A stretch of 64,000 nt of DNA. Origin: Candidatus Anderseniibacteriota bacterium (GTDB taxonomy: Bacteria; Patescibacteriota; Andersenbacteria; UBA10190). Every line of letters starts with the position of its first letter. Position 1 is the first letter of the stretch. The translations under genes and the position numbers were made by a program. Under the pieces are notes generated by a model, which was not told the DNA's origin, searched no databases, and was given only the letters and a program-made list of their open reading frames with translations. Below, piece after piece: positions 21,661 through 64,000 of the stretch. Location: positions 586-64,585 of the forward strand of contig JBBDZC010000003.1 in the NCBI GenBank assembly GCA_040900375.1, in the 5' to 3' direction.

Positions 21661-22494
21661 TCAAAATGCCTGCCGTGAGGTACCTGATAGTTGGGCACTA
21701 TGCGGCAACGGCGCACCGCGGTATTTCCAGAAATACTTAAATGCTGAGCGAATATGTTCGCGCGTGGCCCAGTTAGTGATAATACCCATAAGTGTGCCCT
21801 GACTCGTGCGCTGATGAAAATGGGAAAAACGAGCTTGCGGTACATAAGTTACGCGCCATCCGCCTTGCCAGAAGCGGCGACACCAATCCACATCCTCAAA
21901 GTAAAGAAAGAAACGTTCATCCATGCCACCTATTACTTTAACCGCGGCTGCCCGCAGCGCCAGACAAGATCCCATGAGCCAGTCTACGTCTTGCACTTGT
22001 CGGTGATCAAAGTCTTTCATCAGAAAATGATTAATTTCTTTCTTGCCTAAACGAGTTTGCCCTAGCCACGTGCGCCGGTAAAGAATGGTGAGGAGTTTAT
22101 AAAAATGGTAACAAGAGTATTGCACTTTGCCACTCGGCGAGAGTAACTGTCCCCCTGCCACCCCCACATCCGGATGCGCCTGAAGAAACTGTGTGAGAAT
22201 CATAACAGAACCCGGTAGAGCAATAACATCGGGATTCAGCACTAAGTAGAACTGACCTTGGGCCTGGGCTAGCGCCTTATTAACTCCCGCCGCCAATCCC
22301 ATATTTTTAATATTATCAATCACCATAATTTCTGGGAAATCGGCACGGAGGAACGAGACGCTAGTGTCAGATGATCCATTATCAACCACGATAATTTCCG
22401 TGCGAGGAGGTAGTTTTTGTGTGAGCAATGACTCAATACAGGCTTGCGTGAGCGCTCCGGTATTATAGTTAACAATGATAATAGATAGCTTCAT
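21661..22494 (-). CDS. glycosyltransferase family 2
   Basis: MKLSIIIVNYNTGALTQACIESLL...VVDNGSSDTS...LNPD are classic GT2-A motifs. Confidence 0.8.
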   Translation of the reverse strand: MKLSIIIVNYNTGALTQACIESLLTQKLPPRTEIIVVDNGSSDTSVSFLRADFPEIMVIDNIKNMGLAAGVNKALAQAQGQFYLVLNPDVIALPGSVMILTQFLQAHPDVGVAGGQLLSPSGKVQYSCYHFYKLLTILYRRTWLGQTRLGKKEINHFLMKDFDHRQVQDVDWLMGSCLALRAAAVKVIGGMDERFFLYFEDVDWCRRFWQGGWRVTYVPQARFSHFHQRTSQGTLMGIITNWATREHIRSAFKYFWKYRGAPLPHSAQLSGTSRQAF

Positions 22495-22577
22495 GGGTAT
22501 TAGTTAGTTATACCAAGGACGCGGGCGTAAGTAGTAAAACCCCCCTAGCCTATACTCGTTTTGCTCGTGACACAAGC

Positions 22578-23588
22578 TTAGATTTGTTTGAGCACTCCCT
22601 CTCGGCGCTTTCTGTTCATCCGCGGTAAACCAGAAATTACTTCCGGCCATATCTTAAATAGAGAAGGATACAAGAGACTAAGCCCTAAAAAAACTAGACC
22701 ACGCCCGATGATCGCGGGGGAATATTGAAAGATCGTCATGGGGGTGGCATTTTTAGCAATCATCCAGATCCAGTTACGCAGACTGTACCGCGTGCGCGGA
22801 CTCTGAAGACGACGATAAATCAGACGAGGACGTGATCCCCAGTTAAATATTCCGCGCCGACCAAGGGTCCGAGCGTGATGACCAATCAAGACAGGAACAT
22901 AGTGCACTTTCCATCCTGCACGTTGCAGGCGCCAGCCCAAGTCAACATCTTCTTTATACGCGAAGAAGTCTCTGTCATAAAATTCATTACGACCATGTGC
23001 TACTTGTTTAAGCGCCTGCAAGCGATACAGACTGCAAGCGCCAGTTGTAGCAGTTATGGTTGCTCTTGTCGCAAACTGTCCTTTATCTTCCTCGAAGGCC
23101 CCGCGCTCTTTACCATTCAAAGCATAGGTTAAAACAATGCCGGCGGAATCAATCATGGACTTATTATTGATTATCTCCTGCCGCAGTAACTTACCCTGCA
23201 CGGCTCCTAAAGTGGGATCACCTTCCAAAGCTTGAATGAGCACTTGTACCCCTGGCCAGTGTAGGGTGACATCAGGGTCACACGTTAATACATACGGTGT
23301 GGTGCAGCGAATAAATCCTTCATTATGCCCCTGGGCAAATCCAAGATTACGCGGTAAGGCCACAACCTGGGCCCGGGGGAGAAGCTTGCGCACCGTAGCA
23401 ATTGAGTCATCAGTTGAGTGATTATCAATATATCTAATGATGACGTCCGCCAGCGGAACAACGTGTAAAGCGGGCAACGTCTGGGCCAAGACAGAAGAGC
23501 TGTTCCAGCCCACAATTTGAATAGTGAGTTGCGCTGTCATAGTGAAAGTATTGCTTACGTTATACCAGACTACCGTGTCAAGCTCCAT
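22578..23588 (-). CDS. glycosyltransferase family 2
   Basis: LTIQIVGWNSS...IDNHSTDDS...NLGFAQGHNEG...CDPD are GT2 motifs. The true start is possibly MTAQLTIQ at about 23540. Confidence 0.75.
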   Translation of the reverse strand: MELDTVVWYNVSNTFTMTAQLTIQIVGWNSSSVLAQTLPALHVVPLADVIIRYIDNHSTDDSIATVRKLLPRAQVVALPRNLGFAQGHNEGFIRCTTPYVLTCDPDVTLHWPGVQVLIQALEGDPTLGAVQGKLLRQEIINNKSMIDSAGIVLTYALNGKERGAFEEDKGQFATRATITATTGACSLYRLQALKQVAHGRNEFYDRDFFAYKEDVDLGWRLQRAGWKVHYVPVLIGHHARTLGRRGIFNWGSRPRLIYRRLQSPRTRYSLRNWIWMIAKNATPMTIFQYSPAIIGRGLVFLGLSLLYPSLFKIWPEVISGLPRMNRKRREGVLKQI

Positions 23589-23589
23589 C

Positions 23590-23748: not shown

Positions 23749-23857
23749 GTCAACCCATTCGACTCCACGGTCTAAAGACCGTGGCTTGTTCAGGGTTGAC
23801 TCTAAAGCCGCGCTTATCTCCACCCTGAAGGGTGGAGCTTGCGCGAGTCGAAGAGTC
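23749..23857 (-). repeat. copy 3 (inverted orientation) of the ~109-bp multi-hairpin repeat
   Basis: The reverse complement matches copies 1 and 2 over the full length. Lies in the divergent GT2 / murF intergenic region. Confidence 0.85.
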
Positions 23858-23921
23858 AATGAAAGCCAGCAATGGCTGCGCGGCGCTTTTCGTGGATAAG
23901 GAAAAGATGTAGCCTTAGAGT

Positions 23922-25541
23922 ATGTCCTTCGCCATTTATTTGCCCTGTACGGTGGGCGCCATTCTTGTTTCTTTGCGGATCCTAGCGCAAATTGAGCTAT
24001 GGCAGCGCAAAGAATACCGCTGGGATCGATTACGCTCCCTGCTCTTTAGTGAGGAAAATCGTGTCTTGTTTCCATCCGGATTACTTGTCGGCATGATTCT
24101 TTTGGATATCGGCTGGCTGGCCTCAATCATGGGTCAAGACGCCGGCGCCAATATGTTAGGCTGGAGTAGTTTATTTTTGTTTCTCGGACAAGACATCGTA
24201 CGCATTCGCGCCCGCGGTCTCTATCGGCCCGAGTTTACCCTTAGGGCTCTCCTTATTCTTGGGTTAGCTGCGCTGTTGACCCTTCTCTACATTCTGACTG
24301 TCTTTATTCCTGAAACACAATTAGCCCTCCAGTGGGCCACGCTTGTAGTTTTTATGCCGGTGATCACTGCCAGCAGTGTCATCGGTGTTAATATTCCCGC
24401 TAAACTACGCCAGCGAAGTATTATTGCCCGCGCCGCTAGCTGGAGAGCTCGCCTAACAAAACTTACTGTCCTTGGCATCACCGGCAGTTTTGGTAAAACA
24501 TCTACCAAATATTTTCTCTCGCAATTGTTTAGTAATCGTTATGACGTTGCGACCACCACTGACCACCGTAATTCAGCCCTCGCTGTGGCTTATGACATGC
24601 TTGCTCAACTGACACCTAAAACTAAGATATATATTGCCGAAATGGGTGCCTATCGTCGCGGCGAGATCAAGGAACTAGCTGAACTTACTCGTCCCAAAAT
24701 TGGTCTAATTACCAACATTGGCAATCAACATGCTGCGCTCTTTGGTTCCTCAACCCAGATACTGCGCACCAAGTGGGAATTAATTGAGACTCTACCCGTC
24801 GGCGGTACTGCGGTTCTCAATGCCAATGATGAGCGGCAAGTTGAACAAGCCAAAGGTATCAGTCAAAAAATAATCTGGTTTTCCACTCGCCCCGAGAGAA
24901 AGGCTAATCTTTCCCAGCCGGTGACAGTTTTTGTTGACCAAGTAAAAATTGCTCCCCGCTCACTTGCCTGTATACTGCACCTTCATAAAATAAAAAAACC
25001 TATCACCGTTAACTTACTAAGTGATGCTATGCTGACAAGTTTAGTAGCCGCTGCCGCAGGCGCTCTCGCCCTTGGCCTGCCACCAAAAGAAATTTTTGCT
25101 CGCATTCCTACTCTGCATTCCTATGCTCGGACAATGGAACTAAGAAACAATAGATTTGGGGCCACGATTATTGATGACAGCTACTCGGCCAATGAGCCAG
25201 GCGCGCAGAATGCTATCGAGCACCTCGCTCGTTTTGCCGAAAATAAAAAGATTATCATCTTGGCGCCCCTAATCGAATTAGGTCCCGAGGCAGCGGCTGT
25301 CCATCACCGTCTGGGAGCTATCTTAGCCGCCAGTCGGGCGCAAGTGTATATTACGGCTAAAACTTATCTTAATTCTATTATTGAGGGTGGTCGCCAAGTA
25401 AATAAAGATTTTAAGCCCCACGTCTATAGTCAGCCCCGTTTATTAGCCCAGGTGTTACGGCAACGGGTTACGGCTGACTCGGTAGTTTTAATTGAAGGGA
25501 GAGTACCCGAGATTGTGCGCATGAGCGTGCTTAACCCCTAA
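23922..25541 (+). CDS. murF: MurF-like Mur ligase with N-terminal 4-TM membrane domain replacing the usual N-terminal domain
   Basis: P-loop LGITGSFGKTSTKYF and the MurF-type C-terminal IIDDSYSANEPGAQNA. The first ~170 aa are four predicted TM helices, with only ~25 aa between the last TM and the P-loop. Confidence 0.7.
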   Translation: MSFAIYLPCTVGAILVSLRILAQIELWQRKEYRWDRLRSLLFSEENRVLFPSGLLVGMILLDIGWLASIMGQDAGANMLGWSSLFLFLGQDIVRIRARGLYRPEFTLRALLILGLAALLTLLYILTVFIPETQLALQWATLVVFMPVITASSVIGVNIPAKLRQRSIIARAASWRARLTKLTVLGITGSFGKTSTKYFLSQLFSNRYDVATTTDHRNSALAVAYDMLAQLTPKTKIYIAEMGAYRRGEIKELAELTRPKIGLITNIGNQHAALFGSSTQILRTKWELIETLPVGGTAVLNANDERQVEQAKGISQKIIWFSTRPERKANLSQPVTVFVDQVKIAPRSLACILHLHKIKKPITVNLLSDAMLTSLVAAAAGALALGLPPKEIFARIPTLHSYARTMELRNNRFGATIIDDSYSANEPGAQNAIEHLARFAENKKIIILAPLIELGPEAAAVHHRLGAILAASRAQVYITAKTYLNSIIEGGRQVNKDFKPHVYSQPRLLAQVLRQRVTADSVVLIEGRVPEIVRMSVLNP

Positions 25542-25649: not shown

Positions 25650-26897
25650 ATGCCTCGTCATGAAAATATGTCGCCTATTCTCACCGCTCTCTCGCCCAAT
25701 ACTGAATCAGATGACCGAGTCCGAGCCTGGCAAATACTACAGCGCCCTTGGCGCTGGCATGATGCAAACCAGGTAGCGTCAGTGGAAAAGAAAATATCAG
25801 CATTATTTAATCATCTACCAGCCGTCACCGTCAGCTCGGGACGCCGGGCAATGAGCTATGTCCTTGAAGCTTTCGATATTGGCCAAGGTGATGAAGTAAT
25901 AATCCAAGCCTTTACATGCCTAGCCGTACCGGCAGCCGTGATGTGGACAGGGGCTAAGCCAATATACGCCGATATTGAAGAAACAACTTTCAATTTCGAT
26001 GTAGTTGACATTAGTCGCAAGCTTACCCCTCGCACCAAAGCAATTATTATTCAGCACACGTTTGGTATTCCTGGTCCCCTGGCCACACTCCAAGTTCTCG
26101 CCGCCAAAAATAATATTATTCTAATTGAGGATTGTGCTCATGCTTTGGGCGCTACCTATAACACTGCCCCTGTAGGTACCCAAAGTGATGCTGCCATCTT
26201 AAGCTTCGGCCGCGATAAAGCTTTATCCTCCGTCTTTGGCGGAGCCGTCGTCAGCCGCCACCCACATATTATCGCCCGCATCCGCACTATCCAGACCGCC
26301 TTACCCTATCCGCCTGCTTGGTGGATAATTCAACAATTACTGCACCCTCTCTTCCTGGCAGTGATTAAGCCGCTATATTTCTCCGCCAGCATAGGAAAAA
26401 TTATTTTGGTAATCCTCCAGCGCTTAAGTATCCTTAGTCTGGCAGTTACCCGCTCCGAGAGAGTCGGCGCCCAACCCAATCATGCACGCTGGCGTTATTC
26501 ACCGGCCCTCGCTTATCTTCTCGCGCAACAACTCGATAAACTGGAACGCTTCACTGCTCATCGTCGTAAGATTGCGGCTACCTACGCGAGAGCCCTATCA
26601 TATTCCCCTTCGTTTCCGCCTGCAGCTCAACCAAGTTGGTTGCGCTTTCCCGTCGTCGTTACAGATCGGGCAGCCGCCGTCGCCGCCGCCCGGGCAGCCC
26701 ATATCATGTTAGGTGACTGGTATCAAGATGTTATCATGCCCACAGTTGAAAAGTCGCAAATCAATTATCATCCAGGTTCATGCCCACGCGCCGAAAGTAT
26801 CGCTACCAAAATTATTAATTTACCAACATATCCCGCCTTAACTACTAACCAAGCCGAATGGATTAGTAAAATTGTTGCTCCATATGTCCGACATTGA
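25650..26897 (+). CDS. DegT/DnrJ/EryC1/StrS family PLP-dependent sugar aminotransferase
   Basis: VTVSSGRRAMSYVLEAFDIGQGDEVIIQAFTCLAVPAAVMWTGAKPIYADIEETTFNFD and SFGRDKAL (PLP-lysine region). Confidence 0.8.
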   Translation: MPRHENMSPILTALSPNTESDDRVRAWQILQRPWRWHDANQVASVEKKISALFNHLPAVTVSSGRRAMSYVLEAFDIGQGDEVIIQAFTCLAVPAAVMWTGAKPIYADIEETTFNFDVVDISRKLTPRTKAIIIQHTFGIPGPLATLQVLAAKNNIILIEDCAHALGATYNTAPVGTQSDAAILSFGRDKALSSVFGGAVVSRHPHIIARIRTIQTALPYPPAWWIIQQLLHPLFLAVIKPLYFSASIGKIILVILQRLSILSLAVTRSERVGAQPNHARWRYSPALAYLLAQQLDKLERFTAHRRKIAATYARALSYSPSFPPAAQPSWLRFPVVVTDRAAAVAAARAAHIMLGDWYQDVIMPTVEKSQINYHPGSCPRAESIATKIINLPTYPALTTNQAEWISKIVAPYVRH

Positions 26898-27912
26898 GGT
26901 TAAACTTATCGTCAGTCAGACAGCATGGGACGCTTTTGTGCTAAGACTCCTGCCGAATACCTTCCTTCAAAGTTGGCAATGGGGACAATTCCAGGAGCAA
27001 CAGGGCGAAATAGCACTCTATCTCGGACTATATCGCGGGCCAGAGCAAATTGGAGCCGCCCTCGTGATCTTAGTCAAGGCCCGCCGCGGTTATCACTACA
27101 TTATTCCTCACGGCCCCCTTTGGCTCTCCCCAGCTGATGTTCGCGGTAGTATTCAAGTAATTGCGACTTTTTTGCGCGCCCATGCCACCACTACTGGGGC
27201 AGTGGGGCTACGAATTGCCCCACTCCTATTGGCTACTCCTGCCCACTACGGCATATTTCGGGAACTTGGTTTTCGGGCAGCGCCACTGCATATTCATACC
27301 GAACTTACCTGGGTACTTGATATTAACGAGTCGCTTGCCCTGCTGCTTAAAGCAATGCGTAAAACTACTCGTCAGGCTATTGCCAAAGCGGCGGCCGCCG
27401 GCGTCACAACAGAAATCATTACCGATGTGATTGGCATAAACCGATTTTGGCCACTCTATGAACAAACCCGTCAACGTCATAAATTTGTTCCTTTTAGTCA
27501 GGAATTTCTTCGGCAACAATTCACAGTTTTCGCTTCCACCGGTAATGCCTATCTAGTCATGGCCCGTTATCGGGGCAGGGATATCGCCGGCGCTATCCTA
27601 ATACAGTACGGCAACACCGTCTTTTATCATCATGGCGCGTCAGTTAATCTCGCCGCTTCGGTATCTGGTGCCCAGTTCACCCAATGGCAGGCGATCCAGG
27701 AAGCCCAGCGGCGGGGGGCTACCCGTTATAACTTTTGGGGGATTGCTCCTGCCGAGCAACCAGACCATCCCTTTACCGGTATTACCGTCTTTAAGAAAGG
27801 TTTTGGTGGCTTTGCTCTTGACTATCTGCATGCCCAAGACTTGCCGCTGACACGAGCTTACTGGAAGTTGTGGGCAGTCGATCATTGGCGTAAATACCGC
27901 CGAGGATTTTAG
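26872..27912 (+). CDS. FemAB-family aminoacyl/peptidyl transferase (GNAT-fold, FemX-like)
   Basis: AWDAFVLRLLPNTFLQSWQWGQFQEQQGEIALYLGLY...ILIQYGNTVFYHHGAS...NFWGIA is a Fem/FemX-type architecture. Overlaps DegT by 26 nt; the likely start is MSDIEVK at about 26884. Confidence 0.7.
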   Translation: MLLHMSDIEVKLIVSQTAWDAFVLRLLPNTFLQSWQWGQFQEQQGEIALYLGLYRGPEQIGAALVILVKARRGYHYIIPHGPLWLSPADVRGSIQVIATFLRAHATTTGAVGLRIAPLLLATPAHYGIFRELGFRAAPLHIHTELTWVLDINESLALLLKAMRKTTRQAIAKAAAAGVTTEIITDVIGINRFWPLYEQTRQRHKFVPFSQEFLRQQFTVFASTGNAYLVMARYRGRDIAGAILIQYGNTVFYHHGASVNLAASVSGAQFTQWQAIQEAQRRGATRYNFWGIAPAEQPDHPFTGITVFKKGFGGFALDYLHAQDLPLTRAYWKLWAVDHWRKYRRGF

Positions 27913-29381: not shown

Positions 29382-30342
29382 TATTATTTCTCCACCCCAA
29401 ATGAAAAAGTATTGCCGGAATTGTAAGGACTAGGGCCAGAGGCAGCAAGAGGATAAGCAGAACGTATGCCCCCGTCCCCAAATGTTTTCGGGTGTAATGA
29501 AGACAACTCTTAAAGAAGGGCCATGAACGTTGCCAGCCAATAAGTTGATTAAAACTGATTCCTCCATAGTGCAATACGACTGCCGCTGGCACATAGAGAA
29601 TTTTCCAACCAGCCGCGCTCGCCCGCCGACAATAATCAACCTCTTCTAACCACACCCAAAAACGCTCATCAAGATACCCAATAGTAGTAAGCAACTCTTG
29701 GTGAATTAAGAAAGCCGCACCCATCACCTGTTCCACTATCTGTTCTTGCTCGTAATTAAAATCAGTCCAGAGGTATTCCCGCCAGCGGCGGGTGCGGCCC
29801 GCTACTCGACTTAATTTAAGAAACCACCCTATAAAGATAGGCAGAGTGGGTAATCGTCGAACTGATAATTGTTGTGTCCGATCAGCGTTGAGTAATTTAG
29901 GCCCCACAATGCCAACGCCGGGATGATGATCAAGTGCCATCACCATCTGCTCTAACGCCCCCGACTGCACCTTGGTGTCCGGATTAAGCAAGAGAATATG
30001 AGTCCGGCTCGCTCGCGTTCGGTGTATATAATGAATGCCCAAGTTATTAGCACGTGCAAAGCCTACGTTCTGCGCTTGCTTAAGTAAGTGGACGGGTAGT
30101 TTATTGCCCCCCGTAAATGCCCCGCCGCTAGCGGCGGGGACGGCTTCATCATTCGCTAGTACGACCGATTCGAGTCGAATTATCGAGTCATCCGTCGAAG
30201 CATTATCAATAACGACAATCGCTTCGATAAGGTTTTTTTCTGGCAATCGCAGCAGCGACTGCACACATTGGACTAGCAACTCTCCAGTATTCCAATTAAC
30301 AATTATGACGCTTACTTTTGTCATTAGTATTAAAATAGTCAA
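29356..30342 (-). CDS. glycosyltransferase family 2 carrying an in-frame 14-aa insertion encoded by the 42-nt palindromic element
   Basis: VSVIIVNWNTGELLVQCVQSLL...VIDNASTDDS...NVGFARANNLG...LNPD are GT2 motifs. The DxS-to-NxGFA spacing is 42 aa here against 22 aa in the two sibling GT2s. The extra segment PAASGGAFTGGNKL is encoded by 30108-30149. Confidence 0.8.
   Translation of the reverse strand: MTILILMTKVSVIIVNWNTGELLVQCVQSLLRLPEKNLIEAIVVIDNASTDDSIIRLESVVLANDEAVPAASGGAFTGGNKLPVHLLKQAQNVGFARANNLGIHYIHRTRASRTHILLLNPDTKVQSGALEQMVMALDHHPGVGIVGPKLLNADRTQQLSVRRLPTLPIFIGWFLKLSRVAGRTRRWREYLWTDFNYEQEQIVEQVMGAAFLIHQELLTTIGYLDERFWVWLEEVDYCRRASAAGWKILYVPAAVVLHYGGISFNQLIGWQRSWPFFKSCLHYTRKHLGTGAYVLLILLLPLALVLTIPAILFHLGWRNNNEKIKSHV
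30108..30149. repeat. second copy of the 42-nt GC palindromic element, inside the GT2 CDS
   Basis: The reverse complement differs from 16575-16616 at only 3 positions. Includes the perfect 20-nt palindrome CCCCGCCGCTAGCGGCGGGG. Confidence 0.7.
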
Positions 30343-55459: not shown

Positions 55460-57751
55460 TTGTCACCAGTTTTTTGGACCGTGGCCGATATTTCTCTTCT
55501 TAATAAACATCGCCCTCTATTTTTTCTGGCAATAGTGTTAGCTCTTGCCTTCTATCCGCTGTGGCTCGGCAGGTTTTATGCCATCGGTGACATGCGTGAT
55601 GTCTTTATTCCCCTAGAATTGTTTTTTCAACAACAGCTCCGCATCGGAAATCTTCCGGCATGGCATCCCGATGTAGCGTGGGGGTTTCCGGCAATTGCCG
55701 CCGCCCAGATTGGATTTTTTTACCCCCCGCTTCTCCTCGGCCGCCTCCTCCCCCTCTGGTTCTATCTCCCCCTTATTCTTGTCCTCCATTTTTTTGCCCT
55801 CGCTTGGGGCACATTCTTATTTCTGAAGAAACTTTCATGTACTTCCCAGGCTGCGGTTTTGGGCAGCATCTCGTTGAGCCTCTCGGCGTTCCTGTGGCAG
55901 CATCTCACCCATCTCAATATTACTCTCATCCTCGCTTGGCTACCCTGGCAGCTTTTAGTTGCCCACCGGCTGGCAGAGAAACCTACTCGTTGGCAATATC
56001 TTCTGGGAGCGGTTGTGACTATTGCTCTACCCTTTCTTGCCGGCCAACTCCAACTTCCCCTAATAATGGCCGCCTTTACAACAATCTACTTTTTTAGGCA
56101 ATCGAGAGCCCATTCCCATTTCTTCCGGAATACAGCATGTATCTGGATAATTATCACTCTGGCCGTCATCGCTGTCAGCGCCGTTCAACTTTTACCTACC
56201 TTGGAACTACTCCTTCATTCCTCGCGCGGTAGCGGAGGCGCATGGGACAGCGGGCGAGCTAATCAACATAGTTTTCCGCTATACCATCTTCCTACGCTGC
56301 TTTTTCCCCGTTTCTTTGGAACTGATAGTACCTATTGGGGAAAACGTCTAGAGATTGAGTACGGTATTTTTATTGGCACCATACCGCTTCTCTTGAGTCT
56401 CTGGGCTATCTGGCGCTTTAGGCCAAGCCACAGATTCTGGGTAGCTACTGCCACTATTTCGTTCTTGCTTGCCTTAGGCAGCGCCTCTCCCTTTCGTCTC
56501 GTGGGGCTAGAACCTTCCCTATGGTACTTTTCCGCCCCTGCCCGCTGGCTGGTGTTGACGACGTTGAGCTTAAGCATCCTGGCTGCTTTTGGCTATGACT
56601 ACCTGCGCCAGCATGCTGCCTCTTTTCGCAAGTTTTCCGCGCGCGCCAGTTGGCTTCTGGCAACAGTGGTAGCTGTAGCCAATATTGCCATCTACATTGC
56701 GCCACATTTTCTTGAGCGTCTTCTTAATTATGTTCAGTCAAACATTCCCTCTCTTTTGACCGGCCGGCCGGTCAATTACTACGAGGAGAAAGTGCGGCAG
56801 CTTTTAACCAGCATTCAGGACACCAGCGTAAGCCTCGCCTCGCCTTTCACGTGGCTGACACTCATGATGCTACTACTTACTCCTTGGCTTGTTAGTTCTA
56901 AGCGGTGGTACAAACTTCTGATCGCGGCGGCTGCCCTAGAGCTGATTCTGATTGCGGCGACCAGTACTCCCACAATTTCGTGGCGCAATATTTTAACTCC
57001 TCCCCAATCACTGTCTGTCCTGCCAGCTGCCGTGCAAGAAAAGCAAGCGCGGTTATTATCTCGACGTGAGGGGGGAGACACCGGCGCTTATTTCACCAAT
57101 CCTGCCTCACGAGCTGACACAGCCCTGCGCGCGCAGCAACGCCAGTTACTCCTGCCCCTCATGCATGCCCAATACCAAATAGCGGGGATCGAGTGGCCTG
57201 CTTCACTTGACCTACAGAGCCACGCTCATTACCGCGAGCGCTTGCAGGATGAGAGCGGCAATATTAACACGCCGTTGGCTGAATATCTTAACATTGGTGC
57301 GGTCTTAGTTCCGCCTGACTTGTCTCAACCAGAGAGCCTCTCTCTCTACCGCGAGACTGACGCCGTTAAGGTATACCAGATAGCGGCTCGCCCTCGCGCC
57401 GAGGTAGTAACCGTGACGGGTGAACCCATTGCCGATACACAAGCTTCGTATCGAGAAACAAGTGCCAGTACGGCAGAGATCCAAATAGATACTTCACAAC
57501 CCAGCCTGCTTCTGATCCGCAATACGTGGTACCCCGGCTGGCGAGCAACAATTGATGATAAGCCAGAGGCAGTTAAGCCAGTGAGCGAAATATTTCAGGG
57601 AGTAACCATACCGTCAGGTCGCTACGTAGTTAAGTTAAATTACCAGCCAACCTGGCTCTACGTAGGCCTTAGTGTCTCGTTAGTAGCCAGTTTACTGCTG
57701 GGACTCGGAGTAGTATATGCCAGGCTTTTCAAGCCCGTTTCTAGGGCTTGA
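55460..57751 (+). CDS. YfhO-like large membrane protein (GT-C fold glycosyltransferase using polyprenyl-P-sugar donors)
   Basis: 763 aa. The N-terminal polytopic domain (FYAIGDMRDVFIPLELFFQQQLRIGNLPAWHPDVAWGFP) is YfhO-like, with a C-terminal extracytoplasmic domain and a final TM helix. Sits 8 nt after the DPM1-like GT2. Confidence 0.55.
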   Translation: MSPVFWTVADISLLNKHRPLFFLAIVLALAFYPLWLGRFYAIGDMRDVFIPLELFFQQQLRIGNLPAWHPDVAWGFPAIAAAQIGFFYPPLLLGRLLPLWFYLPLILVLHFFALAWGTFLFLKKLSCTSQAAVLGSISLSLSAFLWQHLTHLNITLILAWLPWQLLVAHRLAEKPTRWQYLLGAVVTIALPFLAGQLQLPLIMAAFTTIYFFRQSRAHSHFFRNTACIWIIITLAVIAVSAVQLLPTLELLLHSSRGSGGAWDSGRANQHSFPLYHLPTLLFPRFFGTDSTYWGKRLEIEYGIFIGTIPLLLSLWAIWRFRPSHRFWVATATISFLLALGSASPFRLVGLEPSLWYFSAPARWLVLTTLSLSILAAFGYDYLRQHAASFRKFSARASWLLATVVAVANIAIYIAPHFLERLLNYVQSNIPSLLTGRPVNYYEEKVRQLLTSIQDTSVSLASPFTWLTLMMLLLTPWLVSSKRWYKLLIAAAALELILIAATSTPTISWRNILTPPQSLSVLPAAVQEKQARLLSRREGGDTGAYFTNPASRADTALRAQQRQLLLPLMHAQYQIAGIEWPASLDLQSHAHYRERLQDESGNINTPLAEYLNIGAVLVPPDLSQPESLSLYRETDAVKVYQIAARPRAEVVTVTGEPIADTQASYRETSASTAEIQIDTSQPSLLLIRNTWYPGWRATIDDKPEAVKPVSEIFQGVTIPSGRYVVKLNYQPTWLYVGLSVSLVASLLLGLGVVYARLFKPVSRA

Positions 57752-57776: not shown

Positions 57777-58985
57777 ATGCCGCGCCCACTCACTCTCTTA
57801 TTCTCTGTACCCACTGGCTACAATGCTCGGGAGTTGCTAACCCCCCTGCAAGAGCATTTGGAACGAGATGAAGCTGTGGGCTCCGTTATTTGCCTCACGC
57901 CGGCTGCCGCCGCTCATCAAGAAATCTTTCCCTCGTTTACTAAGAAATTCCGTTTTATTGCCAATCCTGCGCGCCAGACGCTCCATCATAAACTTTTACA
58001 ACAACTGGCTCCTGACATAGTCGTTACGCCCACCGCGGGCCTCGATCATCACGACACGCCGATTCTTCGCGCCAGCCAGCAGCTAAACATCCCCAGCCTT
58101 ACTTTTATCTCAAGTTGGGACAATGTTTATAAAATGGAGCGCTTCCAAAAATATGGGAAGGCTTACGAGCTCGCTGACCACCTCGTGGTCTGGAATCAAA
58201 TGATGCATGATCACCTCCGTAAAATCTTCCCCCATCTAAAATCTGAAGCAATTTCCATTATCGGTGCGCCGCGTCTCGACTTCTTTACCCACACCGATCG
58301 CCTCCCGTCAAAAAAGACTCTCTTGCAGCATCTTGGCCTTCCCTATGACCGAGGTAAAATCATCCACCTAGCTACCACCGAACTCTATCCTATGGGGTAC
58401 ATTGTCCAGACCATAAGAGAAGCAGAAACTAGCGGAAAAATTCCCCATCAGCTCCATATATATGCTTCTGTTCATCCGGGCGGCGACCTCTCCAAGCACC
58501 GGGCCTATGCCCGCCAATACGGTGTGGTCTTGGGCTATTCGTTTGGGCGCCGCGAATCTTCATCCCATCCTAATTTTCTCTATAATCCTACCCGTGAAGA
58601 AATTTATTTGCTCGTCGCCTTATTTAAGCACGCAGATGTACTGGTTAACCACAGCTCCACGGTCGCAATTGAATCACTTTTCGCAAATGTCCCCGTTATC
58701 AATGTTAAATATGGTCAACCTCTCGATTGGTGGCGTTGGTATCGGTCTATGGTTTATCGAGACTTTCAACAACACTACGCTGACATCACGGCGGGACAGG
58801 CAACCACTATTGTCCATAGTAAGCGAGAGCTCATCCAAGCTTTAAACAAGGATCTTGCCGATCCAGGGCATCTGGCGGCCGCGCGGCAGCAAACCCTTAA
58901 AAGGATAATCACAACAATTGATGGCACGGCTGGCAGGCAACTCCTTGACAAAATTAAACAAATCGCCGTACAACGAAAGACTTAA
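57777..58985 (+). CDS. hypothetical GT-B-like transferase (TagB/TagF / capsule-synthesis-like), low confidence
   Basis: 402 aa, soluble, with Rossmann-like halves. No firm motif recognised. Confidence 0.3.
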   Translation: MPRPLTLLFSVPTGYNARELLTPLQEHLERDEAVGSVICLTPAAAAHQEIFPSFTKKFRFIANPARQTLHHKLLQQLAPDIVVTPTAGLDHHDTPILRASQQLNIPSLTFISSWDNVYKMERFQKYGKAYELADHLVVWNQMMHDHLRKIFPHLKSEAISIIGAPRLDFFTHTDRLPSKKTLLQHLGLPYDRGKIIHLATTELYPMGYIVQTIREAETSGKIPHQLHIYASVHPGGDLSKHRAYARQYGVVLGYSFGRRESSSHPNFLYNPTREEIYLLVALFKHADVLVNHSSTVAIESLFANVPVINVKYGQPLDWWRWYRSMVYRDFQQHYADITAGQATTIVHSKRELIQALNKDLADPGHLAAARQQTLKRIITTIDGTAGRQLLDKIKQIAVQRKT

Positions 58986-59004
58986 AAGCATTGCTCTAAA
59001 GGCT

Positions 59005-59655
59005 ATGAAAACCCGAGGTGCCATTACTTTTGTGTTTGATGACGGCTACCAAGTAATCCATGAGGTGGTCGTGCCTTTACTTGATCGCCTGGCCCTCCCC
59101 GGCGTTTTTGCTATCCCGTTGACTACCAAGACTGTCGCCCAAACTGAAGACCGGCCAGTAACACCCTGGCAGCAGTGGCAGCACATTCATGCTCGTCATG
59201 AAATCGCTGCTCACTCAATTGACCATCTCAACTTAACAACCTGTGATTCGACGCAATTAGCCCATCAACTACAGGAACCCCAACAAACACTTCATGCTAC
59301 TACTTTGGTGTACCCTGGCGGGGCCTTTAACCAAACTGTGCAGCAGGCAGCGAGCAGCTACTATACCGCTGCCCGCACGGTCCAGCGCGGGTTGTCTACT
59401 TTGCCTCCCCGTCAACCGTTGCAGTTACCGACGTATAATTTTACCCGTCATAATTTTTCCGTTAGCCGCGCTAATTATCTGGCCACTGTCGCCTGGGTAA
59501 CAAACCGCTGGTTGATTGAAACGTATCACCTCATTGATAATAACGAACATGAGAAATTACACGCGGTGAAATTAGATGACTTCACGCGGCACCTGCAATT
59601 CGTGAAATATCTCCCGGTGCGTGTGAGTACCATCCGCGATATTATGAGCGCTTAA
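59005..59655 (+). CDS. polysaccharide deacetylase (NodB/CE4-like)
   Basis: ITFVFDDGYQ (the TFDDG motif) and HEIAAHSIDHLNLT (an H..H.DH metal/His motif). The start is taken at MKTRGA because the ORF-track start overlaps the upstream gene. Confidence 0.65.
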   Translation: MKTRGAITFVFDDGYQVIHEVVVPLLDRLALPGVFAIPLTTKTVAQTEDRPVTPWQQWQHIHARHEIAAHSIDHLNLTTCDSTQLAHQLQEPQQTLHATTLVYPGGAFNQTVQQAASSYYTAARTVQRGLSTLPPRQPLQLPTYNFTRHNFSVSRANYLATVAWVTNRWLIETYHLIDNNEHEKLHAVKLDDFTRHLQFVKYLPVRVSTIRDIMSA

Positions 59656-59659: not shown

Positions 59660-60460
59660 ATGAAACTCTCCGCCATTGTTATCACTAAAAATGAGTCAAC
59701 AACCATTGCTCGCTGTCTTAAGAGCCTAAGTTTTGCTGACGAGACGATTGTCGTTGATGCTCATAGTGATGATGATACCGTCGCCCGGGCAGAGCATTGT
59801 GGCGGCCGCGTCTTTACCCGAACATGGGCAGGCTATGGTCAACAGAAAAATTTCGGGGCGGCGCAGGCCCGAGGCGAGTGGTTACTATTTATTGATGCGG
59901 ACGAAGAAGTAACCCCGGCACTACGGGAAGTGATCCAAGCTACGCTGGTGGCACCTAAGGCTGATTTTTATTGGCTACGGACCGTCAATATTTTTTTGGG
60001 TCAACCCCTTTATCATCTCTATGGCCATAATCCTCGTCTTTTTAAAAAAGGCAGGGGACAGTGGAGTGCCCGCTATGTTCATGAACAGGTTGAACGCTTT
60101 GCTACCCCTACCACCGAGAAGATAGTCATTACCCTAGGCGACCCTTATTCTCGTCTTCTCTCTGAACCACTCTTACACCATTCACACCCCTCAATCCACT
60201 CTTACCTTGAGAAAATGCATCGGTACACTTCACTCGATGCTCAATACATGCTCACCACTCACCGCCATCGTTCTGGCCGAGTTATCACTCCTTCAGTGAT
60301 GCTGCCGTGGACCCTCGCCGTGCGCCAATTTATTAAATTATTACTGTATCGCCGCGGCCTCCTCGATGGCTGGCCAGGAATATTGTGGTGCAGTTTATCA
60401 GCCTACTACGAGTGGGAAATGGGTAAAAAATACCTTGCCCTTAAGCAACAGCGTCCATGA
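59660..60460 (+). CDS. glycosyltransferase family 2
   Basis: MKLSAIVITKNESTTIARCLKSL...VVDAHSDDDT...FIDADEE. Confidence 0.8.
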   Translation: MKLSAIVITKNESTTIARCLKSLSFADETIVVDAHSDDDTVARAEHCGGRVFTRTWAGYGQQKNFGAAQARGEWLLFIDADEEVTPALREVIQATLVAPKADFYWLRTVNIFLGQPLYHLYGHNPRLFKKGRGQWSARYVHEQVERFATPTTEKIVITLGDPYSRLLSEPLLHHSHPSIHSYLEKMHRYTSLDAQYMLTTHRHRSGRVITPSVMLPWTLAVRQFIKLLLYRRGLLDGWPGILWCSLSAYYEWEMGKKYLALKQQRP

Positions 60461-61605
60461 GAATAGTCCATACCTGTCTGCGGTATCCGCCCGCCAGTGG
60501 CGGAGTCGAGACATACGTGCAGCAAATTGTTGAAGGGACAAGGGATATTGATAACATGCGCGACGTGCGGGTGCTCACGAGCAAGCTGCGTACTCATGGC
60601 CCCCTCTCTCTGCTTAATCCCGAAGAACTTCTGGATGATCCGCCATACGTGCAGCGTATCCACCATCTGGCCACGCCAGGAATTTCTTATCCCCGCCTCC
60701 AGGCGCTGCGTTACTACTTAGGCCACCACCAGCCCGACGTAATTCATGGCTATAGTTTTTGGTATCAACCAGCCGATATCGCCGCCCGTTTTGCCCAGCA
60801 GCATCGTATCCCCTTCATCTTTCACCCCCTGTACTATACCAATGAAGTTCGTCGCAAACTTATCTGGCGACTCTATAAAAAACTCTACGGCATCCATACC
60901 TTTGCCGCCGCTGACGTGGTGGTTGTTATCTCACCCTACGAACAATCACTACTAGCACACGAAGGCTTTCCCTTGAAGCGCTGTGTTCTCATTCCGCCGG
61001 GAATTGATACTGGCGCCTACACTCGTTCCCGCTCTAACCCCTATCAATTTGATCCCACCCACCCTGTTCTTCTGGCCGTCAGCCGACTAGCGCCCGGCAA
61101 GGGCCTCGATGAACTGATCCGAGTTATGCCATTGGTCCAACGAGAACATCAGACAGTACAATTAGTGATCATCGGCGAAGATTTTGGTGCGCGCCGTAGC
61201 CTGATGGCGCTTGCTACGAGCCTTGACCTAACAGCCACGGTCCACTTTTGGGGCAAGGTTACCCAAGAAAAATTAATTGCGGCATACCAACATGCGACTC
61301 TCTTTATCCATCCCTCGCACTATGAAGCCTTTGGTATCGCGGTCGCCGAAGCCGAGGCGTGTCGCACACCAGTTATCGCCCGCAATAGCACTGCCTTGCC
61401 TTTCGTGGCTCCCCATCAGCAAGTAGGCTTGCTCTACTCCCAGCCATCCGATTTAGTCCAAGCGATTCTCACACTCCTGTCACGGCCCACCCTGCGCCGC
61501 CAATATGGTGAAGCAGGCCTACGACACATCCAGCATAACTTTTCACTGGGCACGACTATAAAAAAAATGACCAACCTCTATGATGAGCTTAGTCAATCCT
61601 CATGA
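60457..61605 (+). CDS. glycosyltransferase family 4
   Basis: PSHYEAFGIAVAEAEACRTPVIARNSTALPFV. Confidence 0.75.
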   Translation: MRIVHTCLRYPPASGGVETYVQQIVEGTRDIDNMRDVRVLTSKLRTHGPLSLLNPEELLDDPPYVQRIHHLATPGISYPRLQALRYYLGHHQPDVIHGYSFWYQPADIAARFAQQHRIPFIFHPLYYTNEVRRKLIWRLYKKLYGIHTFAAADVVVVISPYEQSLLAHEGFPLKRCVLIPPGIDTGAYTRSRSNPYQFDPTHPVLLAVSRLAPGKGLDELIRVMPLVQREHQTVQLVIIGEDFGARRSLMALATSLDLTATVHFWGKVTQEKLIAAYQHATLFIHPSHYEAFGIAVAEAEACRTPVIARNSTALPFVAPHQQVGLLYSQPSDLVQAILTLLSRPTLRRQYGEAGLRHIQHNFSLGTTIKKMTNLYDELSQSS

Positions 61606-62657
61606 CTACCAATCAATCATCCCCCAAAAAAGTTCTTCTACTCGCTTTGTCTGGCATCGGTAATTTTCTTATGCAATCGCCTGTTTTTCAAGCGATCAAA
61701 CAAGCCCATCCCGGCTGGCACATAACCGCCTGGGTCGCTCCTCGCGGCACTAAGACCCTAGCTCACAATAACGCCTATATTGATGAGGTCATTGAAGAAC
61801 CAATCAAACGTAGCCTTGAACAACACTTGTCCTTAACCAGGCGACTACGTCAGTCACACTTTGATATTGGCATCGTCTTATCTCCGGGGCAATTAATCAA
61901 AAGCAGTTTATACCTTTTTGCTAGTAGCATTCCCGTCCGTGTCGGCCACTACTACCCTCTGGGTCACAATCCTCATAGTCACCTTTTCTTGACTCACGCT
62001 ATTCCTGAACAAGATAATTTGCATGACATTGAACAAAACTTATCATTGCTCAATCTCCTTGGTATCCCCCCCGCCTCGACTCCCGTCCAGTACAGCCTCG
62101 TTATTCCCATTACTGCGCAAAAACAAGCCGAAGTGATGCTGGCCCAACTCCAGCTCCCCCTTAGTAAAAAAATTATTGGTTTCCACGTCGGCTCCGCTCC
62201 GCAATTTCACTGGAAGCGCTGGCCGCTCGAATACTTTGCCGCAATAGGCCGTCAGCTGATTGAGCGAAATGCTCACATTCTCCTCCTGGGCTCGCTTGAT
62301 GAAATAGGCCCGATGAAAAAAATGAGGCGGCTGCTGGGTAGTGATACCACAATCATTACCGCTGACCTTTTAACCACTGCGGCTATTATGCAACATTGCC
62401 GTGTGCTTGTATCAAACGATTCAGGACTTATGCATGTGGGCGCGGCGACCGGGGTTAAAACCTTAGGATTATTCGGCCCAACTGACGAGAAAAAAACCGG
62501 CCCACGCGGGCCAAAAAGCTATGTTGTCCGCGCCCCCGGTACGAGCCCGGTGTACCATACAGAGAAGAACTTTAGCCTAGGCATACGACCGCACGAGAGT
62601 CTCGTGGCGCTTAAACCCGCCCAGGTTATAAGAACTATCACAGACTTGCTGTCGTAG
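61602..62657 (+). CDS. glycosyltransferase family 9 (heptosyltransferase-like)
   Basis: KVLLLALSGIGNFLMQSPVFQAIKQAHPGWHITAWV and C-terminal ...VSNDSGLMHVGAATGVKTLGLFGPT (the GT9 DSG.MH motif). Confidence 0.7.
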   Translation: MTTNQSSPKKVLLLALSGIGNFLMQSPVFQAIKQAHPGWHITAWVAPRGTKTLAHNNAYIDEVIEEPIKRSLEQHLSLTRRLRQSHFDIGIVLSPGQLIKSSLYLFASSIPVRVGHYYPLGHNPHSHLFLTHAIPEQDNLHDIEQNLSLLNLLGIPPASTPVQYSLVIPITAQKQAEVMLAQLQLPLSKKIIGFHVGSAPQFHWKRWPLEYFAAIGRQLIERNAHILLLGSLDEIGPMKKMRRLLGSDTTIITADLLTTAAIMQHCRVLVSNDSGLMHVGAATGVKTLGLFGPTDEKKTGPRGPKSYVVRAPGTSPVYHTEKNFSLGIRPHESLVALKPAQVIRTITDLLS

Positions 62658-63891
62658 AGGCACGGCGAGCTGCTGCTTGATAAACAGTCTCATGTTGCCG
62701 AGCAATAAGATCGGGATCCAGATGTGTTATAACCCAGCGCTGGGCCGCTTCTTGGATCTTCTTCCGGTCAGAAGCTCCAAGGTTAAGCGCCGTCACTAAC
62801 TGCTCTTGCAGAGAGGCCACCGATCCTGCCTGACACAGTAACCCGGTAACACCATGATCTACAATTTCTCCTGGGCCACCCCTATTACTGGTGACCACCA
62901 CCCGTCCCCGCGCCATTGCTTCCACCACTGTTCGGCCAAAAGGTTCTATCCAGATATGAGGCGCCACTACCACCAGGGCTTTATCATAAAAGGCGTGAAT
63001 TTTATCCCACGCCACACGCCCCGAAAAAATAACACGCTGTTGTAAACCCTTACTGGTAACAAAATGTTGGTATTGTTTCTTTTGCGCTCCTTCGCCGACA
63101 ATTTTTAACTTAACATCGGCAAACTCGGCCGCGATATTGGCAAAAGCCTCAAGCAATACCCCTACTCCTTTATACATTTCGACTGTGCCGACATAGAGGA
63201 TTTCTTTTGTGGGCGGCGTAACTGCCGGCACGGTCAGATATTCCCTCGGCACCGGATTATAGATTACGTGCGTGACCTGGCCACGTAAATCTTGTTGTTG
63301 CTGGATCTCACTCCGGTGCGTGCGGGAAATAAAAATCTGGTGAGGAAATTTCTGAAAGGCGAGGCGGCGGTAATTAATATTGTATTTGTACTGCCACACG
63401 CGAAATGGTTTGCGCCACCAAGGGGCTTCCCTCACTCGATGATTGCGGACCACGTCTGGCCATGAGCAGTGACAGCGACGGCCATCAGACAAAATATTGT
63501 TAGTTGAGCCGCAGACTTGCGCATAATCACGAGCCGTAACCACAGCGTGAGGGTACTCTAATTCACTTAACGCCAGAGCACTACGAAAATCGTGCGCGTG
63601 AATAATGTCATATTGGCTGGCGTCACCAATCACGCGGGCTAAAACCCGCGCCATTTTGCGCGCGTGGGCGCGTTCAAAAAGAGGTTTAGCATCAAGCGAC
63701 AACGGCAAGCGGTGAACTACTACTCCCTGCAAATTATATTCTTCGTCTGCCCCGCCAGCAGTAATGACACGCACTTGGTGGCCTCGTTGTTGCAGGCTGG
63801 CCGCAATATAATGAGTTGATAATTCGCCCCCACCCTTACTCACTGGTGGGTAAAGCGCCGAAAGAAAAAGAAGCTTCATATTATCCTTCAT
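62638..63891 (-). CDS. glycosyltransferase family 4
   Basis: MKLLFLSALYPPVSKGGGELSTHYIAASLQQRGHQV...EPFGRTVVEAMARGRVVVTSNRGGPGEIV. Confidence 0.8.
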   Translation of the reverse strand: MKDNMKLLFLSALYPPVSKGGGELSTHYIAASLQQRGHQVRVITAGGADEEYNLQGVVVHRLPLSLDAKPLFERAHARKMARVLARVIGDASQYDIIHAHDFRSALALSELEYPHAVVTARDYAQVCGSTNNILSDGRRCHCSWPDVVRNHRVREAPWWRKPFRVWQYKYNINYRRLAFQKFPHQIFISRTHRSEIQQQQDLRGQVTHVIYNPVPREYLTVPAVTPPTKEILYVGTVEMYKGVGVLLEAFANIAAEFADVKLKIVGEGAQKKQYQHFVTSKGLQQRVIFSGRVAWDKIHAFYDKALVVVAPHIWIEPFGRTVVEAMARGRVVVTSNRGGPGEIVDHGVTGLLCQAGSVASLQEQLVTALNLGASDRKKIQEAAQRWVITHLDPDLIARQHETVYQAAARRASTTASL

Positions 63892-64000
63892 CTACCACCT
63901 GACGATAAACATCAAGCTCCTGTTGGGCAGCCGCTTTCCAGGAAAATTGACGAGCTCGCGCAAGCCCCCGCGTACGCAATTCACGCGCCAAGGCCGGTTG
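63881..64000 (-). CDS. C-terminal end of another GT4 glycosyltransferase (gene continues beyond window)
   Basis: The reverse frame ends ...ALARELRTRGLARARQFSWKAAAQQELDVYRQVVDEG*, a typical GT4 C-terminal helix. 11-nt overlap with the downstream GT4 start. Confidence 0.5.
   Translation of the reverse strand, partial: QPALARELRTRGLARARQFSWKAAAQQELDVYRQVVDEG

Follow-up and report, generated by a model that had tools for sequence, protein, structure and literature searches.

The window analysed here is a 64,000-nt stretch of a Candidatus Anderseniibacteriota genome (GCA_040900375.1, contig JBBDZC010000003.1), and our subject is the cell-envelope glycan locus that occupies positions 21661-64000 of it. 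At its left end the window has a set of ribosomal and RNA-polymerase genes (L13, L17, rpoA, S4, S11 and S13; 132-3360), after which come a short alanyl-tRNA synthetase gene, a gene for a VirD4-like ATPase and then the dcw cell-wall block. All 33 open reading frames (ORFs) of at least 100 amino acids in 21661-64000 were scanned against Pfam and NCBIfam. About 21 glycosyltransferases (GTs) are encoded in the region, together with three MOP flippases, one Wzy_C protein, several peptidoglycan enzymes and a deacetylase. Its genes and those of the adjoining dcw block are given below; genes are referred to in the text by their lower coordinate, and related loci carry L numbers.

13045-20577, minus strand: dcw block murB-murC-murG-ftsW-murD-mraY
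20649-21590, minus strand: S11 D-Ala-D-Ala carboxypeptidase, dacA-like (PF00768 2e-39); final gene of the dcw block, adjoining the glycan locus
21661-22494 and 22578-23588, minus strand: two GT2 genes (PF00535/PF13641; orthologues 43-72% and 28-56% identical in L001, L002, L096, L100 and L107)
23922-25541, plus strand: MurF-like Mur ligase with a membrane domain (TIGR01143 murF 7e-62)
25650-26897, plus strand: DegT/PseC-type sugar aminotransferase (PF01041 4e-64; best NCBIfam match PseC 2.5e-41, below cut-off)
26872-27912, plus strand: FemAB/FemX-like peptidyl- or acyl-transferase (PF02388 1e-29, PF13480; FemX 4e-8)
27909-29381, minus strand: polytopic Wzy_C protein that would polymerise or ligate a lipid-linked glycan (PF04932 47 bits against a 31.7 cut-off; about 12 hydrophobic segments)
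29356-30342 and 30857-31966, minus strand: GT2 and GT4 (Pfam; orthologues in the same order, 39-62% identity)
32005-34659, minus strand: Wzx-type MOP flippase (N-terminus) joined to a TuaH-like GT4 (C-terminus), 884 aa (PF13440/PF01943, Glycos_transf_1)
34677-35870, minus strand: GT4 (PF00534 7e-44)
35915-37375, minus strand: SpoIID/LytB-domain protein with an N-terminal anchor, peptidoglycan remodelling (TIGR02669 94 bits against an 83.3 cut-off; 39-66% identity in relatives)
37390-39207, minus strand: receiver-only response regulator (37390) and PAS/HAMP histidine kinase (37789) (Pfam)
39387-40415, plus strand: polyprenyl-phosphate sugar synthase-like GT2 (dolichol-phosphate mannose synthase [DPMS] structure 5mlz 4.8e-16; 53-74% identity in relatives)
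40366-41499, plus strand: GT4 (PF00534 7e-27)
41542-42156, minus strand: PgeF/YfiH family, the peptidoglycan editing factor family (PF02578 1e-20; TIGR00726 7.6e-18, below cut-off)
42153-43940, minus strand: GT-C-fold membrane glycosyltransferase, 595 aa, of an unclassified rare family (predicted by AlphaFold2 and Foldseek)
44044-44301, minus strand: Transgly_assoc (GlsB/YeaQ-type) small membrane protein, 85 aa (PF04226 3e-13)
44448-45206, plus strand: small soluble DPM1-like GT2 (PDB: DPMS 5mlz 7e-14, ArnC 2e-11; 57-62% identity in relatives)
45261-46412, plus strand: divergent GT4 (PF13692/PF00534)
46412-48721, plus strand: GT-C-fold glycosyltransferase, 769 aa, with a beta-rich C-terminal extracytoplasmic domain of about 290 aa (predicted by AlphaFold2 and Foldseek)
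48728-50197, plus strand: MOP-superfamily (Wzx/MatE-like) flippase directly 3' of the GT-C gene (PF01943, PF13440, PF01554; 61% identity in relatives)
50194-50784, plus strand: conserved 196-aa protein with an N-terminal anchor and no Pfam match (syntenic in L081 and L086, 38-43% identity)
50958-52523, plus strand: MurJ, lipid II flippase family (PF03023 3.5e-64; 58-62% identity in relatives)
52536-53648, plus strand: conserved 370-aa soluble protein, probably a divergent GT-B (50-53% identity in relatives)
53645-54709, plus strand: divergent GT9 paralogue that keeps a Gly-Asp motif (PF01075 8e-7)
54742-55452, plus strand: small soluble DPM1-like GT2 (PDB: DPMS 5mlz 3.4e-28 over residues 7-233; next match 3.6e-6)
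55460-57751, plus strand: YfhO-family GT-C, variable among relatives (PF09586 56.9 bits against a 28.5 cut-off)
57777-58985, plus strand: TagF-like GT-B (PF04464 1.5e-7; BFO_1060 family 1.6e-19, below cut-off)
58918-59655, plus strand: CE4 polysaccharide deacetylase (PF01522 8e-13)
59660-60460 and 60457-61605, plus strand: GT2 and GT4 (Pfam)
61602-62657, plus strand: GT9 with WaaF-like fold and donor-site motifs, and Asn for the catalytic Asp13 (PF01075 1e-31)
62638-63891, minus strand: GT4 (PF00534 4e-38), opening a minus-strand run of GT4 genes that in relatives extends past the window

By Pfam and NCBIfam, seven genes belong to GT2 (21661, 22578, 29356, 39387, 44448, 54742 and 59660), and seven GT-B proteins of GT4 type carry Glycos_transf_1 (30857, the C-terminus of 32005, 34677, 40366, 45261, 60457 and 62638). 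There are two GT9 genes, one matching strongly (61602) and one weakly (53645), a single TagF-like GT-B gene (57777), and one unassigned gene, probably GT-B (52536); the last had no match in Pfam or the PDB, and its orthologues show only faint Glycos_transf_1/Glyco_trans_1_2 matches. The MOP flippases are Wzx 48728, the Wzx domain of 32005 and MurJ 50958, and further envelope genes encode Wzy_C 27909, the CE4 enzyme 58918 and YfhO 55460. In the fusion protein 32005 the flippase match (PF13440/PF01943) covers residues 18-335 and Glycos_transf_1 residues 714-856, and the protein matches TuaH at 1e-37.

An initial annotation of this DNA, made from the letters alone, had described an envelope-glycan locus, and the Pfam and NCBIfam gene content bears this out. 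Its counts of at least seven GT2 and two GT9 genes also stand (orthologues of the weakly matching 53645 carry PF01075), as do two Wzx flippases with MurJ, the Wzy protein, the CE4 deacetylase and YfhO. The nine GT4 genes that it gave are reduced to the seven with Glycos_transf_1, nine being reached only if TagF-like 57777 and unassigned 52536 are added. Its statement that nearly every gene is glycan related was too sweeping: it overlooked MurF-like 23922, DegT 25650, FemAB-like 26872 and SpoIID-like 35915, as well as the response regulator 37390, the kinase 37789, PgeF 41542 and the Transgly_assoc protein at 44044-44301.

The MurF-like protein 23922 scores 209.8 bits with TIGR01143, against a cut-off of 288.6, and matches model positions 60-405 only. 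Its first 165 or so residues form a hydrophobic membrane domain of about four helices that replaces the usual nucleotide-binding N-terminal domain of Mur ligases and that is aligned in orthologues from residue 8-25. The enzyme may act on a lipid-linked substrate. Together with DegT 25650 and FemAB-like 26872 it forms a conserved trio; no canonical murE or murF was found in the window's dcw block.

Conservation and boundaries of the locus

From 21.6 kb to the end of the window, its gene order recurs in about 15 related contigs, with amino-acid identities of 31-74%. Homologue look-ups gave the loci L081/L085, L083, L084 and L086 (GCA_016178385.1, a Logan assembly, GCA_040876835.1 and GCA_964610055.1), in which the genes from 29356 to 63891 occur in the same order and orientation at 34-71% identity. 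A metagenome scan with the Wzx-GT4 fusion as query gave 11 loci carrying the full-length fusion. These cover GT2a to GT4d at 31-74% identity and have in common the order GT2a, GT2b, MurF-like, DegT, FemAB, Wzy_C, GT2c, GT4a, Wzx-GT4, GT4b, SpoIID, GT2-TM, GT4c, PgeF, GT-C595, GT2d, GT4d. In all, the fusion is present at full length in at least 13 relatives (40-60% identity).

The left edge of the region adjoins dacA and the dcw cluster. A genome scan with MraY gave L001 and L002, in which the block is linked to dacA and mraY and murD are visible too; the link to dacA is seen as well in L107, a locus of the metagenome scan, so that the linkage dcw-dacA-GT2-GT2 is kept in these three loci. MraY itself is above the TIGR00445 cut-off, and its relatives in GTDB genomes come from metagenome-assembled genomes of Patescibacteria type, several of them obviously mislabelled; Andersenbacteria is placed in the Parcubacteria group of Patescibacteria (NCBI taxonomy). 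The right end was judged from the relatives, in which GT4, GT2 and GT-C genes continue for at least another 10 kb past the end of the window. L083 and L084 have three to four further GT4 genes there and genes for proteins of 694-754 aa without Pfam matches; beyond the equivalent of the window, L083 also has a GT2 gene beside one for a DUF2304 protein, and L084 a PMT-family GT-C gene. Since the relatives continue with glycan genes, the locus is longer than 42 kb, and both boundaries of the region as delimited here are arbitrary.

The initial annotation had taken the region for a surface-glycan island with repeats at its edges, one of accessory character, acquired horizontally and hypervariable in content. 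Glycan loci are often hypervariable, and there are local differences among the relatives that would suit such an island. YfhO and PgeF come and go (YfhO 55460 occurs in L083 but in neither L081 nor L084), and the MurF-DegT-FemAB trio is missing from L002 and L107. In L081 four genes (4476-8859, GCA_016178385.1) are inserted between the small GT2 and the GT4/GT-C pair; their products are a methyltransferase, an ATP-grasp protein, a protein of the MATCAP family and a RimK-like ligase, a hint that the glycan of that genome undergoes amino-acid ligation. The response regulator/kinase pair (37390-39207) occurs in the window only, being absent between SpoIID and GT2 in 13 of the 13 relatives that cover this junction. 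It may be a recent local insertion, because its GC content (0.43-0.44) and its GC content at third codon positions (GC3, 0.39) are the lowest in the window.

Over the region as a whole the evidence points the other way. The initial annotation had itself named conservation across relatives as a result that would argue against an accessory character, and such conservation is what the collinear contigs display. A GC scan, which it had proposed as a check for horizontal acquisition, gave 0.488 in the region and 0.484 in the ribosomal/dcw flank, with GC3 at 0.477 and 0.471, that is, values equal to those of the flank. No tRNA was found in the window, and Pfam scans of the window found no integrase or transposase domain. 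The repeats, which it had placed at the edges, lie at 11.5, 19.3, 23.8 and 30.5 kb; three of these copies are in or near the left part of the region, but none is at 21.6 or 64 kb, and the one at 11.5 kb is far outside. Because the relatives are collinear, the composition equals that of the flank, neither tRNA nor integrase is present and the repeats are off the borders, the accessory character is refuted, and the region is instead a fixed core locus of the lineage. A repeat-bounded island of the kind first described is scarcely credible.

The repeat is an intergenic element of about 114 nt in four copies (11538-11649, 19322-19435, 23749-23860 and 30452-30565), two in each orientation, located within the dcw cluster and in the left third of the region. 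Two palindromes, CCACGGCCTTTAGACCGTGG and CTCCACCCTGAAGGGTGGAG, occur inside the element, which has no Rfam match. Between the copies at 19322 and 30452, whose sequences are 99% complementary, lie the 11 kb from mraY to GT2c. Inversion of this segment by the two repeat arms was considered and rejected because the relatives have the same orientation. An ORF at 11358-11699 (GC 0.59) overlaps one copy of the repeat and is probably spurious.

Predicted polyprenyl-phosphate sugar synthases, putative GT-C proteins and GT9 enzymes

Among solved structures, Pyrococcus dolichol-phosphate mannose synthase (5mlz) is the top match of 39387, 44448 and 54742 alike; ArnC ranks second for the first two and third for 54742. 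The alignment of ArnC to 39387 (2e-12) covers residues 20-317 and includes both of its C-terminal transmembrane segments (263-281 and 298-316). The other two proteins have no such segments, and DPM1 and PpgS are soluble forms of this type of polyprenyl-phosphate sugar synthase. In NCBIfam, all three small GT2 proteins have AglJ and PpgS among their best matches, always below the equivalog cut-offs (1e-42 and 1e-29, respectively, for 39387). These similarities support the prediction, made in the initial annotation too, that the three are polyprenyl-phosphate sugar synthases of DPM1/GtrB/ArnC type.

The initial annotation had also set each synthase beside a large membrane protein. This is so for 54742 and 55460, but 39387 and 42153 are convergent with two genes between them, and a GT4 gene separates 44448 from 46412, a pair that is parted further in L081 by the four-gene insert. 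The adjacency kept across relatives is that of 44448 with the divergently oriented GT-C gene 42153 (the gap is 46 bp in L085).

The membrane proteins themselves were less easily placed. YfhO is assigned by Pfam, but 42153 matches nothing in Pfam or NCBIfam and has a single, non-significant PDB sequence match (E 0.75), and 46412 has no significant sequence match in Pfam, NCBIfam or the PDB. BLASTP finds no similarity between the two, and a paralogous relationship was rejected on that ground. For each, more than 120 full-length homologues were found (35-49% identity), and the named ones are nearly all from Andersenbacteria. AlphaFold2 models made from the homologue alignments had a predicted local distance difference test score (pLDDT) of 92.0 and a predicted template-modelling score (pTM) of 0.92 for 46412, and 93.9 and 0.93 for 42153. 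When these models were compared with the PDB by Foldseek, the best 22 matches of 46412 were all GT-C proteins (STT3 at 2e-7, AftD, AglB, DPY19, PglB, EmbA/B, ArnT and ALG9), as were the best 13 of 42153 (AglB at 1.4e-4, STT3, AftA, ArnT, PglB and EmbB), with probabilities of 0.90-1.00 and TM-scores of 0.3-0.5. The models thus support a GT-C fold for both, as initially proposed for the large polytopic proteins, and with YfhO the locus would encode three GT-C enzymes.

Invariant residues are N113, G128, D129, E159, Y160, P161 and H165 in 42153, all within a large loop at 113-180, and D119, R148, D149, D152 and H159 in 46412. In the models the invariant acidic residues of both proteins fall in large inter-transmembrane loops which, by helix parity, would share one side of the membrane with the soluble C-terminal domain. 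The family profile of 42153 finds 192 proteins (E <= 1e-3) among 1.84 billion representatives, and the distant relatives are likewise without Pfam domains; in the 46412 family a DUF6541 signal is faint and seen in 15 of 57 members. Judged by sequence profiles, both proteins are outside any GT-C sequence family described in Pfam or NCBIfam.

The stronger of the two GT9 proteins, 61602, is among the best-conserved proteins of the locus (48-59% identity, more than 100 homologues). It scores 110.6 bits with PF01075, against a 22-bit cut-off, and aligns with E. coli WaaF (1psw) at full length, over residues 10-350, at 1.4e-18. Some of its homologues in Patescibacteria are publicly annotated "lipopolysaccharide heptosyltransferase II". 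The alignment and the annotations would be expected if the GT9 enzymes, the WaaL-like Wzy_C protein and the GT4 enzymes made up a lipopolysaccharide (LPS) core/O-antigen pathway in a diderm with LPS. The ADP-heptose site fits such a pathway as well: in the WaaF alignment and an alignment of 31 orthologues, K205 (in WKRWP) and D273 (in NDSGLMH), the equivalents of K192 and D261, are nearly invariant. The catalytic position does not. The SWVGD of WaaF aligns with SGIGN in 61602, so that the position of the proposed catalytic base Asp13 is N21 (motif LSGIGN), and at least 90% of the aligned sequences likewise have Asn there, whereas according to a review (PMC5713226) every heptosyltransferase has D13 and the D13A substitution lowers activity 4688-fold. 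The score with the HepII equivalog TIGR02195 is 123.1 bits against a cut-off of 134.6. Neither the window nor the roughly 300 kb examined in the flanks of relatives contains an lpx, kds, lpt, bam or waaA gene, there are no heptose-pathway genes nearby, and the lineage probably lacks the lipid A/Kdo acceptors. CPR (Candidate Phyla Radiation) genomes have been reported without lpxC and kdsA (PMC5220378). We regard an LPS pathway as very improbable.

Because CPR genomes are reported to lack LPS genes, the GT9 genes are outside their usual context, and the remark in the initial annotation that they would be of note in an organism without LPS was well placed. A GT9 clade that has exchanged Asp for Asn but retains an intact ADP-heptose site may imply a different acceptor chemistry. 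The second GT9 protein, 53645, matches PF01075 at 29 bits over 48 aa, and its GNMGD aligns to the GD/GN column.

Candidate pathway and acceptor of the glycan

We read the region, with a probability of about 0.7, as a lineage-conserved, vertically inherited cell-envelope locus of Andersenbacteria that is physically continuous with the dcw peptidoglycan cluster. Two routes of synthesis may be envisaged. In the first, cytoplasmic GT2, GT4, GT9 and TagF-like enzymes would assemble at least one oligosaccharide on a polyprenyl carrier; an amino sugar made by DegT would be incorporated, and the CE4 enzyme would deacetylate. Export would be by the Wzx-type flippase 48728 and by the Wzx domain fused to the TuaH-like GT4 in 32005, and Wzy_C 27909 would polymerise or ligate the exported product. 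In the second, the DPM1/ArnC-like enzymes 39387, 44448 and 54742 would load single sugars onto polyprenyl phosphate. These would be flipped, 48728 being the candidate flippase as the neighbour of GT-C 46412, and the GT-C proteins 42153, 46412 and YfhO 55460 would transfer the sugars outside the membrane to the nascent polymer or to another surface acceptor. The GT9 enzymes would act on the non-LPS glycan of the locus. Parts of a Wzx/Wzy pathway are indeed present (PF01943/PF13440 in 48728 and 32005, PF04932 in 27909, and cytoplasmic GTs). Since MurJ and the MurF-like, FemAB-like, SpoIID-like and PgeF genes are embedded in the locus and the dcw cluster is contiguous with it, the gene content suggests a secondary wall polymer whose synthesis accompanies that of peptidoglycan and which is probably attached to it.

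Several observations weigh against this reading. No initiating phosphoglycosyltransferase other than MraY was seen in the window or flanks, where no Bac_transf domain occurs, and no LCP-type peptidoglycan ligase, no nucleotide-sugar pathway gene except DegT and no GtrA- or SMR-type small flippase were seen in the locus; a Wzz domain, as of a chain-length regulator, is likewise absent from the window and flanks. None of the GTs reaches an NCBIfam equivalog cut-off, their matches being sub-threshold and to generic GT2/GT4 models, and for this reason their sugar specificity is not readable. The pairing of synthases with GT-C proteins is ambiguous: 54742 is conserved (62-71% identity) even in relatives without YfhO. 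The lack of LPS would hold for this organism by extension from the literature on other CPR (PMC5220378). Finally, the fold matches of the two large GT-C proteins are only moderate (TM-scores of 0.4-0.5) and do not separate an oligosaccharyltransferase-like from an ArnT- or Aft-like enzyme.

The last point bears on the acceptor, which might mainly be protein, the GT-C enzymes then serving as oligosaccharyl- or mannosyl-transferases on S-layer proteins or pilins in an archaeal Agl-like or a PglB/PMT-like manner. STT3, AglB and PglB are the best fold matches of both models, but their TM-scores to oligosaccharyltransferases (0.42-0.50) are no better than those to ArnT, ALG9 and AftA. The best NCBIfam match of 39387 is AglJ, an enzyme of S-layer N-glycosylation, with a score of 147 bits against a cut-off of 325. 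Glycosylated S-layers have been proposed for CPR genomes (PMC5220378), and the PMT-family gene of L084 is just past the window equivalent; within the locus there is no S-layer or pilin gene. Nor has 46412 a WWDYG motif, the nearest string being a conserved DDYNR at 502-507, and a wall polymer is the better fit for the genes of Wzy_C, TagF-like, CE4 and peptidoglycan enzymes. With GT-C models that are as similar to oligosaccharyltransferases as to ArnT/Aft, a protein acceptor is a real alternative, but we think it unlikely.

The logic of the locus resembles that of a Wzx/Wzy pathway combined with three-component extracytoplasmic glycosylation, as represented by GtrA/GtrB/GtrC (Shigella, Salmonella), CsbB/GtcA/YfhO (Bacillus, Listeria), ArnC/ArnEF/ArnT and the system of a polyprenyl-phosphate-ribose synthase, a MATE flippase and GT136 (PMC11127046). 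As in these systems, its GT2 synthases are structurally closest to DPMS and ArnC, and its GT-C proteins comprise one YfhO and two assigned by fold, one of them with a C-terminal beta-rich domain. In the GT136 system a MOP/MATE-family flippase works with a GT-C protein bearing a C-terminal carbohydrate-binding module (Kelly et al. 2024, PMC11127046), an arrangement matched here by 48728, whose gene directly follows that of GT-C 46412. Unlike the known systems, the locus has no GtrA-/SMR-type flippase, two of its three synthases lack a transmembrane anchor and its two large GT-C proteins belong to no Pfam or NCBIfam family. Its synthase and GT-C genes are interleaved with GT4 genes without fixed pairing, and the set stands in a strictly conserved core locus, not in a serotype-converting module.

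Gram-positive wall-polysaccharide and teichuronic-acid loci are a further parallel. With B. subtilis tuaA-H and the streptococcal and lactococcal rhamnose-rich wall polysaccharide clusters (PMC11754754, PMC10821137), the locus shares Wzx, a Wzy_C-type polymerase and GT2/GT4 enzymes, the TuaH-like C-terminal domain of 32005, a TagF-like enzyme and, putatively, GT-C side-chain addition from polyprenyl-phosphate sugars. It differs in that no TuaA/TagO/WecA-type initiator, chain-length regulator, LCP ligase or rhamnose pathway was seen here, in the fusion of its flippase to a TuaH-like GT, and in the presence of GT9. More distantly, the locus resembles mycobacterial arabinogalactan/lipoarabinomannan assembly, in which the GT-C enzymes AftA-D and EmbA-C are fed by the polyprenyl-phosphate-sugar synthases Ppm1 and PpgS: several different GT-C proteins occur in one conserved wall-linked locus, the folds match AftA, AftD and EmbA/B, and the small GT2 proteins have PpgS among their best NCBIfam matches. 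There is, however, no sequence-level relationship, and the locus has no DprE, UbiA-type or galactan genes. Its distinctive features are the two unclassified GT-C families, the flippase-GT4 fusion, the GT9 Asn clade, the membrane domain of the MurF-like protein and an unusually strict gene order. A search of one literature library found no paper combining Andersenbacteria with glycosyltransferase, and a single one, a pangenome study of Gallionellaceae, in which Patescibacteria and heptosyltransferase occur together.

The locus may, tentatively, be taken a step further. The membrane-anchored MurF-like, FemAB-like and DegT proteins may add amino acids to an amino-sugar intermediate that is lipid-linked, not UDP-linked. 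The product might, though this is rather doubtful, be a lineage-specific and probably essential wall heteropolysaccharide with GT-C, GT9-Asn and MurF-like components in its assembly, which would be hard-wired to the synthesis of peptidoglycan, as the contiguous dcw cluster and the MurJ gene of the locus suggest. If so, the locus would be the first genetic blueprint of an undefined layer of the CPR cell envelope, a structure central to the biology of these bacteria because CPR/Patescibacteria live by surface contact with hosts. CPR genomes are generally very small, and one CPR lineage spends more than 42 kb on a fixed set of about 21 glycosyltransferases beside its peptidoglycan genes. The structure and assembly of the envelope "remain unclear" for all CPR studied (PMC5220378). 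The locus offers concrete biochemical candidates, namely three predicted polyprenyl-phosphate sugar synthases, three putative GT-C enzymes (two of unclassified families) and a GT9 with an altered catalytic residue, and it corrects the expectation that a glycan-rich region is an accessory island.

Other genes to the left of the dcw block

Coding density amounts to 94.5%, and no Rfam family was found in the window at the gathering threshold. On the minus strand between the ribosomal operon and the alanyl-tRNA synthetase gene lies a gene (3908-5341) for a 477-aa protein with a weak Baseplate_J-like match (7e-5). The alanyl-tRNA synthetase (5390-7159, minus strand) has only 589 aa and stops after the tRNA_SAD domain, without a further C-terminal region. 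Between the housekeeping blocks there follows a trio of minus-strand genes (8196-12717). They encode a VirD4/TraG-like coupling ATPase whose C-terminus carries a treble-clef zinc finger (8196-9938), an unassigned anchored protein of 430 aa (9951-11243), and a protein in which sigma-70 region 4 is joined to a HARE-HTH domain (11662-12717). In L005, L063 and L065 the first two are again neighbours, and in L063 and L065 all three occur together.

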